Sequence record: PZ583741.1
DNA length: 64,000 bases
Direction: 5' to 3' (one strand)
Origin: a phage
Under the pieces are notes generated by a model. The model saw only the letters and a list, made by a program, of their open reading frames with translations. It did no database searches and had not been told where the DNA came from. Within the stretch, counting starts at the first letter, position 1, and every line of letters starts with the position of its first letter. Positions 16,480-64,000 of the stretch are shown in pieces. The position numbers were made by a program, and so were the translations under genes.

Positions 16480-17709
16480 ATGAGCGACAAAATCGCAGTA
16501 TTGAATGCGTACATCAAGGATAGAGTATCTAACAACAATAGAATGATTCAGCAACAGCGCATATGCCACGCCGGGAAAAATTTAGATCAGAAGCGCGCTT
16601 TTATGTGGAGGGAGATGGGATACCCACAAGAAATTAACGCTGAGGATTTCAGATTTGCATATGAGCGTTACCCACTGGCAAACGCCGCAGTAAATATCGT
16701 TCTTAACAAGTCGTGGCATGGTATGCCTACAGTGCTTGAGGATGGCGCTGATGATGAAGCCACTTCCCCATGGGAAAAGAGCGTCAATGACATTCTGAAG
16801 AAGGCGCTACCATTCATCAAGGATGCAGATAAGCGGAATCTGATTAACCGATACTCTGCGCTAATACTGCAAATCCGTGATGGGCGCAAGTGGAGTGAGC
16901 CTGTAGACATCACAAAAACCCGCCGAATTAAAGATAAATCCATCGTTCGCTTTATTCCGGTGTGGGAAGAGCAACTCCGTGTCAGCGCATGGAATAACGA
17001 CGAAACCAGCGAAGACTACGGAATGCCTGAGATGTACGAATATCAGGAAAGCGCCGTAGAGGATTTCGACAGCGACGGAAAACCTGAGCGTTCCGTGCAG
17101 ATTCACCCAGACCGCATCATCATTCTGGCTGAGGGTAGCTTTGACGGCAGCATGTTCAGTGGCGTTCCATTGCTACGCGCTGGTTTTAACTCATTAATAG
17201 ATTGTGCCAAGGTGTCCGGAAGTTCTGCTGAGGGGTTACTCAAAAACTCATCTCGCCAGCTTAATGTTTCGTTCAATAAAGATAATGTTTCAGCGCAATC
17301 ACTGGCACAGCAGATGCAAGTTCCAGTGGATGATTTGGCAGACCTGTTGAACGAAAACATCGAAATGCTCAACTCAGGCATTGATGCAGCAATGTTCAGC
17401 TTTGGCAGTGATGTTAGCGTTCTTTCAACATCCATGAGCGACCCTGAGCCGTTTATGTATGTTGCTGCCAGTCAGTTCGCGGCATCAGTGAATATCCCGC
17501 TTAACTCATTACTTGGAAGTCGCAGCGGTGTGCTCGCATCGGCCAATGATGAGCAGTCACTGGCAATGATGGCCATGCAACGCAGGGATGGCTGGCTTGA
17601 TTATCTGGTTGGTTCTTTCGTTGAGCGTTTAATTTCGTTTGGCATTGTGGAAAGCATGCCGGAAGCAACCTCAAAAGGTATCGCCGACTTCCTGGCTACA
17701 TGTTACTAA
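16480..17709 (+). CDS. portal-like protein of genome A; last 19 codons are read from genome B sequence
   Basis: 409 aa; blocks align by eye with B portal 24584..25810; the ORF crosses the A/B junction at 17651/17652. Confidence 0.5.
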
Positions 17710-17778
17710 GTTATCTTACAAGGCATCTCGTGGGGTGCCTCAGTAAGACAACCGGAGATAGAGCATGAAAACCAAAAT
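17652..17778. repeat. 127-bp segment exactly repeated at 63874..64000
   Basis: Base-by-base identity read over the whole segment; identity breaks at 17651 versus 63873. Confidence 0.85.
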
Positions 17779-17950
17779 GATTCACAAGTCAGAAGTAAAA
17801 ATTGGCGACACGGTAATTCACTGCGGTGAGATGAAGACGGTTGGCATGGAAACATTTGGCAAGGATGAGTTTATGGGACTCCTACTGTGGGGTGATAGCT
17901 ATCGCTGCGGCTACAAGATGGTTGAGGTTGTAACTGAGGTTAAGTTTTGA
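17765..17950 (+). CDS. hypothetical small protein
   Basis: 61 aa ORF; followed directly by cassette motif. Confidence 0.4.
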   Translation: MKTKMIHKSEVKIGDTVIHCGEMKTVGMETFGKDEFMGLLLWGDSYRCGYKMVEVVTEVKF

Positions 17951-17968
17951 ATAGCACGAATTGCTAAA
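17951..17968 (+). promoter_or_regulatory. B cassette motif ATAGCACGAATTGCTAAA
   Basis: Overlaps upstream stop; TATAGT-like box about 22 nt downstream. Confidence 0.55.
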
Positions 17969-18214
17969 CCTTCCGCAAGGCCGTTTGATATAGTGGTCTT
18001 GTTGAAGCAAAACAATCAATCATGGGGTTACACAAATGCAAGTTTATAAATCACCTGGCGGCGCTCGTTACGTTGTTGTTGATGGCATGGTGTACTGCAA
18101 GCCGCTAACCGGATTCACATTTCGCTCGTCAATGACGGTGGATCGATACCTTTAGTTGATAGGTTGGGGATTTCTTAGGTTTGAAAAGGTAATCAAGCCT
18201 ATAATGACCGTCAA

Positions 18215-18232
18215 ATAGCACGAATTGTTAAA
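18215..18232 (+). promoter_or_regulatory. B cassette motif, variant (atagcacgaattgttaaa)
   Basis: Read directly. Confidence 0.4.
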
Positions 18233-18410
18233 ATGGGATTCATCCTGAATGGTATGATCCACACATCAACCACAAGAATGGAAGTTAAGTGACGATATAC
18301 GAACATAAATTCAGCAGTATGGGTATTGATATGCTCCTGCACTATGTAGACGAAAAATACGCAAATCTCATGCTTAATACGCATGGCGGCACAATAACGA
18401 GGATTGAGAT

Positions 18411-18674
18411 ATGAGTAAGTACAACCGTGAGATTATCGGCCTGGATGGGGAAGTAACCACAGTGGATGTATATCGAGTCCTGGATGCATTCCAGGTAACA
18501 GACCAAGCTATACAGCACGCAATCAAGAAGATGCTGTGCACTGGACTTAGAGGGCATAAGGACTATCTTACTGACATTGAAGACTCCATTGAATCACTGC
18601 AAAAAGCCAAGGAACTTTACGATCAGCGCAAGAGTTACGAGCGGCGATACAATTTATCTTTTACAGATAAATAG
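18411..18674 (+). CDS. hypothetical small protein
   Basis: 87 aa ORF. Confidence 0.4.
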   Translation: MSKYNREIIGLDGEVTTVDVYRVLDAFQVTDQAIQHAIKKMLCTGLRGHKDYLTDIEDSIESLQKAKELYDQRKSYERRYNLSFTDK

Positions 18675-61939: not shown

Positions 61940-62662
61940 ATTGCGCGGTAGTATTTACCCTTTTTAGTCTCTTTCGAGAGTGACTCAGAGTCTGCTACCG
62001 TGTCGATGAGATTAAGTATACGCATAGTTAGCCACACTGTCTTTAGCAAAAAGTGCTATTCGTTAGATTTATGGATTGTTGCAGATATTGCAATGATTCA
62101 CATGACTATTGCACATACAGCAATATTGCTTCAGATGCAATGATGTTTTTGATTGTTGCGAAAATTGAAATGAAGTGGAGATTGAGTGAATGAAAGATGG
62201 ATGGACTACCATACAAGTTGATTTTGATCTTGACTGAGCCATTTTCACGCTTACACGTAACCGCTGTAGCGCGATGTAAGCCAACGCCTATCGTTACGCG
62301 AGTTACGCGAAGCTACGCCATGACTTACACTATAAGTGCTTAATATATATATATATCTTCTTTCTATTATTATTATTATTATTAATATTATTGTATGTAA
62401 GTCATGTAACCGGGTGTTCGGCGGTATCTATATGTTTTTTCCTATCAGAATACATTATTTCCATTTTATGCGAGATTTAGCCATTATGGGGCCACCTAGC
62501 TAATTTACCTCGTTACACGCACGACACGAAACTACATTGAGCTATAGCTGGGCTGGTGTGCCATTTCGCGTAACGACCCCCAAAAGTTACCAAAAATTAC
62601 ACTTGACTACATGTGTAAGTCGGGATATGATGGATTCAACTTAAACGAGAGGAGTAATAGAA
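61940..62662. promoter_or_regulatory. AT-rich divergent control region (copy 2) with (TA)n, (ATT)n and 20-bp element cattgagctatagctgggct
   Basis: Element at 62535..62554; (tatt)/(att) run 62361..62390; paralogous to 43440..43938. Confidence 0.5.
62043..62060 (-). promoter_or_regulatory. B cassette motif on minus strand, variant (aatagcactttttgctaa)
   Basis: Reverse complement read directly. Confidence 0.45.
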
Positions 62663-63142
62663 ATGAACGAGAAAGTAACATTGGGACAAGTGATTCGTGA
62701 GATGGTAAAGGCAGCGCTTAAGTCTGAGGACAAGCAGATCAGCGTGACACTTAACAAGATTGAGAGCCTTATTGGTGCTGAGGAGGGTGGCCTACACAAG
62801 CTTAAGAGCTCATATATCTACAATACAACGGCTCGCATGCCAGAGTTGAGGGATGCAGGACTGAAGGCAACTCACCACTATGATGACGATGAGGGTGGCA
62901 GTGAATTTGGAGAAACAACTTTAGCGGGAGAAAGGAAGTTAGTTATCAAGCTAATACCAGGCACGGCAAACATTGGAATCAGGAAAAAGACCAACGACGC
63001 GGTCAAGGATGAGGCAATCACTGAGTTCAAGGCGAAGATTTCTAAGGTGATGCCAGATCTCTCTGAGTATGAGGGTGAAGCGCTTGCAGCCGCCATGAAG
63101 GCCATTAAGGATTACCGTTTAATTATTGAGGAGATTAAGTAA
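62663..63142 (+). CDS. hypothetical protein
   Basis: 159 aa, RBS gagaggag upstream. Confidence 0.4.
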   Translation: MNEKVTLGQVIREMVKAALKSEDKQISVTLNKIESLIGAEEGGLHKLKSSYIYNTTARMPELRDAGLKATHHYDDDEGGSEFGETTLAGERKLVIKLIPGTANIGIRKKTNDAVKDEAITEFKAKISKVMPDLSEYEGEALAAAMKAIKDYRLIIEEIK

Positions 63143-63666
63143 TGTTTGACTTTAACGATGATAAACTGACAGAAGAGCAGGTAATTGAGATATCCAAGCA
63201 AGATGGACTGCCTCCGCTGCGAATTGCAATCAATGCTAACGGTTATCGACAGTCAACTGCGTTTTGGGGCTCGATTGATACATCAGAGGTGTATAGTGGT
63301 GATGAGCTTGGTGTACTGATTAAAATCATCAGGAAAATGGGAGTCAACGGCAAAGGAGTTGTCGGCATCAGGTCTCTATATGAAGGTGCTCGCAAGCTGA
63401 AACCATTTACGGGTCGCGATGGAATGATGCTACTGATTAAGGATAAGCTAATTCCAGAACTCGACAAGATGAATGTTACCTGTCTAATTGGAGATAAGGT
63501 TTACGTCAACCCTTCCTTGACGGATTTAAGCTGGCAGCCTAACTTCAAAACTTACGAAGGTGAGCACCATAGCAGACTACCATACCACTTGCGGTACAGT
63601 GAGGAGGAGGTTGAGAAGGCGATTGAGTTCTACCGGAAAGCTAAATCACTCCTGAATGGTAAATAG
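63142..63666 (+). CDS. truncated paralog of P-loop protein 58773..60356 (lacks the NTPase core)
   Basis: 174 aa; MFDFNDDKLTEEQV...LPPLRIAINANGYRQS and GKGVVGIRSLYE...CLIGDKVYVNP match the N- and C-termini of the 527-aa protein. Confidence 0.45.
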   Translation: MFDFNDDKLTEEQVIEISKQDGLPPLRIAINANGYRQSTAFWGSIDTSEVYSGDELGVLIKIIRKMGVNGKGVVGIRSLYEGARKLKPFTGRDGMMLLIKDKLIPELDKMNVTCLIGDKVYVNPSLTDLSWQPNFKTYEGEHHSRLPYHLRYSEEEVEKAIEFYRKAKSLLNGK

Positions 63667-63680
63667 CACTTTTTGCCTAA
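63663..63680 (+). promoter_or_regulatory. B cassette motif, variant (atagcactttttgcctaa)
   Basis: Then ggatggcataatagcc and catcgaaacgagag. Confidence 0.45.
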
Positions 63681-63742
63681 CGCGGTAATGCCAAGGATGG
63701 CATAATAGCCTCATCGAAACGAGAGATACCAAGGAAAACAAA

Positions 63743-63931
63743 ATGTCTAAGCGCATCACTAAAGAACTTAAAGTGCTGAACAAAGAAAACGTAATCACCA
63801 TCCTGACAATGTTTGGCTACAACGAAGAATCTGCCATTGCAAAGGTTGAATCTGGTTACGATGTTGCGGTACGAAGCATGCCGGAAGCAACCTCAAAAGG
63901 TATCGCCGACTTCCTGGCTACATGTTACTAA
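63743..63931 (+). CDS. hypothetical small protein
   Basis: 62 aa; its last 58 nt are the start of the 127-bp repeat shared with 17652.. Confidence 0.4.
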   Translation: MSKRITKELKVLNKENVITILTMFGYNEESAIAKVESGYDVAVRSMPEATSKGIADFLATCY

Positions 63932-64000
63932 GTTATCTTACAAGGCATCTCGTGGGGTGCCTCAGTAAGACAACCGGAGATAGAGCATGAAAACCAAAAT
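63874..64000. repeat. 127-bp exact copy of 17652..17778 (terminal overlap of circular genome B)
   Basis: Base-by-base identity; period 46,222 bp; repeat ends exactly at the window end. Confidence 0.85.

Follow-up and report, generated by a model that had tools for sequence, protein, structure and literature searches.

Background

The DNA that T1-like phages package is linear, terminally redundant and circularly permuted, and a single arginyl-tRNA is typical of the related members of this group (PMC4070988). In phage assemblies, SPAdes contigs have been documented to carry artificial 127-bp overlaps at their ends (PMC5923482), and the initial assembly of the T1-like phage Sfin-1 had a terminal repeat of 127 bp (PMC6714547). 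In the present study, we analyzed a 64,000-nt stretch of the phage sequence record PZ583741.1 (the window), in which the bases at 17652-17778 recur exactly at 63874-64000. The results indicated that the window very probably consists of two independent phage genomes laid end to end and is not one molecule. The left one, part A, is an incomplete Segzyvirus-like phage; the right one, part B, is a complete Rtp-like phage whose two ends carry the 127-nt repeat.

Part B resembled Rtp and its relatives (Rtpvirus, Guelphvirus) in its G+C content of 44%, its gene order, its one tRNA-Arg and a 21-nt direct repeat, and it shared with Rtp an HNH gene between the small and large terminase genes. It differed from the closest Rtp-like genomes in the tail spike and in several small early genes. 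The ends of part B also resembled the SPAdes 127-bp end repeat, in that the first and last 127 bases were the same and the trimmed unit was colinear with independent genomes; no difference in sequence from such a terminal overlap was observed. Part A was 88-93% identical to Segz_1, Seszw, BS5, LPST49 and ASO78B in colinear order, and it had in common with the Segz_1 group the gene order SSB, Erf, exonuclease, helicase, primases, large terminase of about 840 aa, and portal. Unlike this group, part A comprised just 17.65 kb, of which 49-61% was covered (megablast), and it carried an extra HNH gene at 541-1059 and a cut portal gene. The layout of the window is as follows.

1-17651, plus strand: part A, read as the 3' end (17.65 kb) of a contig from a Segzyvirus-like phage
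17651-17652, no strand assigned: artificial junction; similarity to the relatives of part A stops at 17651, and similarity to the relatives of part B starts at 17652
17652-63873, plus strand: part B, one whole genome unit (46,222 bp) of an Rtp-like phage of the Drexlerviridae (Braunvirinae)
17652-17778, plus strand: 127-nt terminal overlap, copy 1; start of contig B, exactly identical to 63874-64000
63874-64000, plus strand: 127-nt terminal overlap, copy 2; end of contig B and of the window, with the length of a documented SPAdes artefact

The exact repeat and the closure of part B

Direct comparison of the two copies showed that 127 of 127 bases were identical. A repeat search of the whole window revealed this pair as the sole long exact repeat, with a spacing of 46,222, and an exact match of 127 nt in 64 kb cannot have arisen by chance. 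The base 5' of each copy differed (A at 17651, G at 63873), and the 200 bases preceding each copy were 21.5% identical, which is the random level. The repeat thus started precisely at the break in similarity between parts A and B and stopped precisely at the end of the window. Its length of 127 nt is a minimum, as the left limit is a mismatch and the right limit is only the window end. A first-pass annotation, made by a model from the sequence alone, had reported identical end copies with identity breaking directly upstream and had considered a period of 46,222 bp plausible for a T1-like siphovirus; both statements held. It did not mention that the repeat length is a minimum. The genome of Rtp measures 46,219 bp.

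The closure of part B was examined with a synthetic sequence in which 62374-63873 was followed by 17652-19151, so that the join lay at query 1500/1501. It was observed that the synthetic join aligned to Escherichia phage vB_Ec-G8 (G8) as a single ungapped piece of 1,804 nt (query 1197-3000) with 99.3% identity. In separate searches, window position 63873 corresponded to G8 25902 and window position 17652 to G8 25903, and the two positions abutted. The annotated G8 coding sequence EcG8_037 spans G8 25902/25903, i.e., the join, and its homologue in part B is the following gene.

63743-63931, plus strand: small gene of 62 aa across the closure point of part B; open reading frame (ORF), homologue EcG8_037 (G8 25772-25960)

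Because the join is contiguous in the independent complete genome of G8 and EcG8_037 runs across it, part B closes on itself. The unit left after trimming one 127-nt copy closed into a coherent circle, as is expected of a k-mer overlap, and the one-piece alignment bore out the earlier proposal that part B is a complete circular phage closed by 127 bp. The word "circular" describes a property of the assembly of part B and not of the virion DNA. The terminally redundant, circularly permuted nature of T1-like DNA would argue against a fixed biological terminal repeat of 127 bp.

Parts A and B as two separate genomes

Two large terminase genes (12520-15054 and about 22446-24125) and two portal genes (from 16480 and at 24572-25810) were found in the window.

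12520-15054, plus strand: large terminase of part A, 844 aa, intein-bearing (Terminase_3, Terminase_3C, Hom_end_hint, Hom_end, LAGLIDADG_3)
16480-17651, plus strand: truncated portal of part A, cut after codon 390 of about 470
22446-24125, plus strand: large terminase of part B (Pfam Terminase_6C), aligning to Rtp rtp21 at 6857-8428
24572-25810, plus strand: full-length portal of part B (Pfam Phage_portal_3, profile positions 4-355 of 357, E-value 2e-67)

The large terminase of part A matched Terminase_3, whereas that of part B matched Terminase_6C, and two portals were recognized by Pfam. Position 1-17651 therefore holds a second, different large terminase and a second portal, as the first-pass annotation had claimed. 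The DNA alignment of part A to Salmonella phage Segz_1 (Segzyvirus) stopped exactly at 17651, inside the portal gene. The Segz_1 portal has 470 aa; the part A portal matched its residues 3-390 with 94% identity and lacked about 80 C-terminal codons. It covered positions 7-291 of the 357-position Phage_portal_3 profile, compared with 4-355 for the portal of part B. The ORF that contains the truncated gene (16480-17709, 409 aa) takes 390 codons and 2 nt from part A, and its final 19 codons, with the codon split by the junction counted among them, are supplied by part B. This part B-derived end (17652-17709) is the same as the last 19 codons of the small gene at 63743-63931. The crossing of the junction by the portal ORF, which had been noticed at first pass, was thus confirmed.

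Part A was 91.4% identical to Segz_1 over 61% of its length and was colinear over 1-17651 with LPST49, PHA46_2 and BS5 among complete genomes of 45-48 kb. The Pfam matches identified genes for SSB and Erf, for a PDDEXK exonuclease, a helicase and primases, for three HNH endonucleases, and for a large terminase and a portal in it. Part A is a partial genome, and its assignment to Segzyvirus rests on similarity and gene order.

Part B was 88-94% identical to vB_EcoD_SU57, vB_Ec-G8, CEB_EC3a, ACG-M12 and DTL (megablast); its first 25 kb gave 88-90% identity over 83-90% to SU57, CEB_EC3a and ACG-M12. The comparison with Rtp yielded 84% identity over 31 kb in colinear order, with a single monotonic pass of window 18286-61233 along Rtp 1977-45320. 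The Pfam matches in part B included packaging and head proteins (GP3_package, Terminase_6C, portal, DUF2213, major capsid), tail proteins (tape measure, GpJ, tail spike) and others (DUF3799 exonuclease, Erf, primase, helicase, VRR-NUC, DUF3987, lysozyme). The module set was complete by Pfam, with packaging, head (including a head maturation protein), tail, recombination, replication and lysis genes. These results agreed with the earlier view that one full set of phage modules lies from 17652 onward.

Parallel copies of Erf, exonuclease, VRR-NUC, helicase and primase were present in parts A and B, and they were 34-41% identical. The only DNA shared by the two parts was 69 nt at 85.5% identity over the conserved HNH catalytic motif. 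A recent exchange between parts A and B was ruled out, because the shared DNA is limited to these 69 nt and the HNH proteins are 46% identical overall. When 2 kb across the junction was used as a query, the top matches listed lay within query 3-997 or 1001-2000 and stopped at the junction. Of the 297 phage records that matched, none contained a place that covered 80% or more of the query. The same query gave no match in the plasmid or E. coli genome collections, which ruled out a phage contig filed as a plasmid or within an E. coli assembly.

Origin of the 127-nt overlap

We consider two genomes laid end to end to be the highly probable explanation of the window. Part A would be the final 17.65 kb of the contig of a Segzyvirus-like phage, which ended by chance inside the portal gene, and 17652-64000 would be an entire contig of 46,349 bp, made of one 46,222-bp unit followed by a second copy of its opening 127 bases. 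The duplication would be the k-mer overlap left when a de Bruijn assembler, namely SPAdes with a largest k of 127, circled the assembly graph once. A circular graph would be expected for a headful-packaging, circularly permuted T1-like phage, since reads from terminally redundant, circularly permuted DNA assemble into a circle. The chimeric portal ORF would be a reading-frame accident of concatenation. The repeat, the closure, the truncation and the distinctness of the two genomes are direct observations. We infer the end-to-end joining of the contigs, and we infer the assembler and the k value from the length of the repeat, which equals the assembler k at 127 and is strictly a minimum. The first-pass annotation had taken 127 bp as a typical k-mer overlap on a circular contig, for which the documented SPAdes overlaps provide the precedent (PMC5923482). 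It had also read 1-17651 as the end of one contig and 17652-64000 as a second, circular one, and this reading was supported by the closure, the truncation and the junction-free records.

Some points weigh against this explanation. The contig boundary was not seen directly. Exact-pattern scans of IMG/VR with the final 45 nt of part A and with the closure of part B, of JGI metagenomes with patterns from both parts, and of GTDB genomes with a pattern from within the repeat did not find the source record. Look-ups in a gene-position index for proteins identical to the large terminase and helicase of part A, the GpJ and tail spike of part B, the chimeric portal ORF and the 62-aa protein across the closure gave no hit. 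The G+C content (44.1% in part A, 44.0% in part B) has no power to separate the two parts. In addition, the right end of the repeat is masked by the window end, so the true length is at least 127 nt. The last point leaves room for a repeat longer than 127 nt that is clipped by the window end, in which case the source would hold more than one part B unit, either as a long-read concatemer contig or as deposited terminal redundancy. The right boundary is indeed the end of the window and not a mismatch, and T1-like phages have kilobase-scale terminal redundancy (PMC4070988). However, a random window end would give exactly 127 nt, the maximum k of SPAdes, about once in 46,000 cases, and the left boundary coincides with the break between parts A and B, which points to the start of a contig and not to the interior of a concatemer. 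A clipped longer repeat is thus considered very improbable. The artefactual join could also lie inside a single deposited sequence, with contig A mis-joined to contig B by an assembler, a scaffolder or the submitter. The window alone does not distinguish a join in the record from one made when the window was built, and both phages infect enterobacteria and could share one mixed lysate or sewage sample. De Bruijn mis-joins normally arise at shared repeats, but parts A and B have no shared repeat at the junction, and the intact 127-nt overlap at both ends of part B indicates that part B was a free-standing contig when it was joined. We regard a mis-join within the record as unlikely, although it is the most credible of the alternatives.

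The least probable alternative, to which we give almost no credence, is a genuine hybrid in which the Rtp-like part B was inserted or recombined into the portal gene of the Segzyvirus-like part A, with the 127-nt copies as att-like or target-site repeats and the whole replicating or being packaged as one molecule. Direct repeats around a complete element do resemble an insertion, and the window stops before the sequence beyond the second copy. However, the 127 nt are native to part B and are contiguous with both of its flanks in G8. Apart from random 9-14-mers, they have no counterpart in part A or at the Segz_1 portal locus and so represent neither a target duplication nor a common att core; the att and target-duplication readings were accordingly ruled out. 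No integrase or transposase Pfam domain was found in the 28 ORFs of part B that were scanned, which comprised ORFs of about 110 aa or more. An insertion at this site would also have destroyed an essential portal gene, and the molecule would exceed 64 kb, compared with capsids for about 44-48 kb in both phage types. Finally, such a junction occurred in 0 of the 297 related records.

With two genomes laid end to end as the preferred explanation, the feature is an assembly and concatenation artefact and is biologically ordinary. The 409-aa "portal", a genome with two terminases, and the estimates of genome size and gene content are spurious when taken across 17651/17652, and the 127-nt end copy needs to be trimmed before part B is treated as a genome. 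Parts A and B are ordinary new members of known groups: part A is a Segzyvirus-like fragment, and part B is less than 95% identical to any deposited Rtp-like or Guelphvirus-like phage. The one aspect of some biological value is how the 21-nt repeat, whose function has been left open in the literature, is placed in its putative promoter.

The direct repeat and its putative promoter geometry in part B

A 21-nt direct repeat, aaATAGCACnnnTTGnTAAAA, has been described for phage TLS and is said to be present also in T1, Rtp and Rogue1 (PMC11447400). Its function was left open by the authors, who considered a stoperator, an enhancer site or an UP element (PMC11447400). The corresponding sites in part B are listed below.

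17950-63680, no strand assigned: 22 copies of the Drexlerviridae direct repeat AATAGCACnnnTTGCTAAA, each oriented toward the downstream gene
18670-18688, 19108-19126, 24121-24139 and 60844-60862: example motif sites in part B

A search of the window with the 19-nt motif AATAGCACNNNTTGCTAAA, allowing up to 3 mismatches, gave 22 matches, all within 17950-63680 and none in 1-17651. About 1.07 matches were expected by chance, and none of 100 shuffles reached 22. The first-pass annotation had counted about 19 copies of a "cassette motif" from 17652 onward and none in part A; the absence from 1-17651 was confirmed, and the count was revised to 22. This distribution is a further sign that the two parts are different genomes. 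The motif of part B has the same consensus as the TLS repeat and a similar copy number (22 in part B, 21 in TLS). It is the published family-wide Drexlerviridae repeat and is not new. The difference from the TLS description is a fixed distance of 22 nt to a -10-like hexamer, which is shown here.

The motif starts about 71-90 nt before the start codon, which is preceded by a ribosome-binding site. A -10-like hexamer (TATAGT, TATAAT or TATATT) was found exactly 22 nt after TTGCTA in 16 of the 22 copies of part B, in 17 of 20 in Rtp, and in 6 of 8 in the 21-kb Logan relative (L002); the background of this hexamer was 1.25% per position. TTGCTA lies about 5 bp upstream of the canonical -35 position. 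It was rejected as a -35 hexamer, because its distance to the -10-like hexamer is 22 nt and not 16-19. The fixed distance argues that the repeat may be part of the promoter itself, and the 21-nt repeat appears to be the upstream half of a putative non-canonical promoter. On the assumption of a transcription start about 7 nt downstream of the -10 hexamer, the dyad TAGCA-N5-TGCTA would be centred near -42. A dyad near -42 is the geometry of class II activator-dependent promoters. Such a geometry implies a putative dedicated activator, from the phage or the host, that would replace the -35 contact. Part B encodes HTH proteins at 50105-50614 (the Rtp52 homologue) and 42686-43438 (Rha-like), which are candidates for such a role.

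Other features of the Rtp-like genome

21087-21164, plus strand: tRNA-Arg(TCT) of part B (ARAGORN and Rfam), upstream of the small terminase gene

By sequence comparison, part B is no deposited phage, given its identity of 88-94%, with only partial coverage, to the closest genomes. Among the proteins looked up, only its major capsid protein had exact matches, on three Logan contigs, the longest of which was ERR12771259 (L002) with 46,226 bp; this contig is related to part B but is not its source. L002 has about the length of part B and an identical major capsid protein, and its HNH insertions differ from those of part B. Judged from these sequence features, L002, which comes from a public sequencing run, is a close uncharacterised relative of part B.

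An AT-rich repeat, AATATCTATATATATC...TTATTATTATTATTA, occurred in part B at 43571-43613 and 62342-62384, with 84% identity between the copies. Both copies lie in long intergenic regions with diverging transcription (43438-44137 and 61939-62663), and these regions are candidate origin, pac or regulatory regions.

HNH endonuclease genes and the terminase region of part A

541-1059, minus strand: HNH_3 gene of part A
5124-5645, minus strand: HNH_3 gene of part A
15963-16442, plus strand: HNH_3 gene of part A, 46% identical to the part B copy at 22049
22049-22561, plus strand: HNH_3 gene of part B; together with the part A copy at 15963, the source of the sole nucleotide similarity between the two parts

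The window contained four HNH_3 endonuclease genes, three in part A and one in part B, and two of the four had AP2 domains. Their positions varied among relatives; for example, L002 has no HNH gene between its terminase genes and has one after its tape-measure gene. Because the positions differ among relatives, the results suggest that the HNH genes are mobile homing endonucleases. The part B large terminase probably has its true start near 22554-22561, downstream of the part B HNH gene (22049-22561).

In the part A large terminase, the Hint and LAGLIDADG homing-endonuclease domains of the intein occupy about residues 92-375 and precede the matched Terminase_3 ATPase domain at 454-648. The homologous gene of Segz_1 is similarly long (2,520 nt). 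Upstream of the part A large terminase there is an ORF of 138 aa, which is possibly the small terminase. The 84-nt gap between this ORF and the large terminase contained a match to the Rfam int-alpA RNA (RF02996) at 12452-12515 on the plus strand, with 42.6 bits compared with a gathering score of 35.8. The int-alpA RNA family is usually reported beside integrase or alpA genes.

A repeated promoter-like element, TTGACGTAGAATTACAACTGATGTAGATTGAACTCATCGAAAC, was observed in part A in inverted orientation at 9790-9842 and 15243-15295. This element ends in a CATCGAAAC leader, which closely resembles the leader downstream of the part B promoters.

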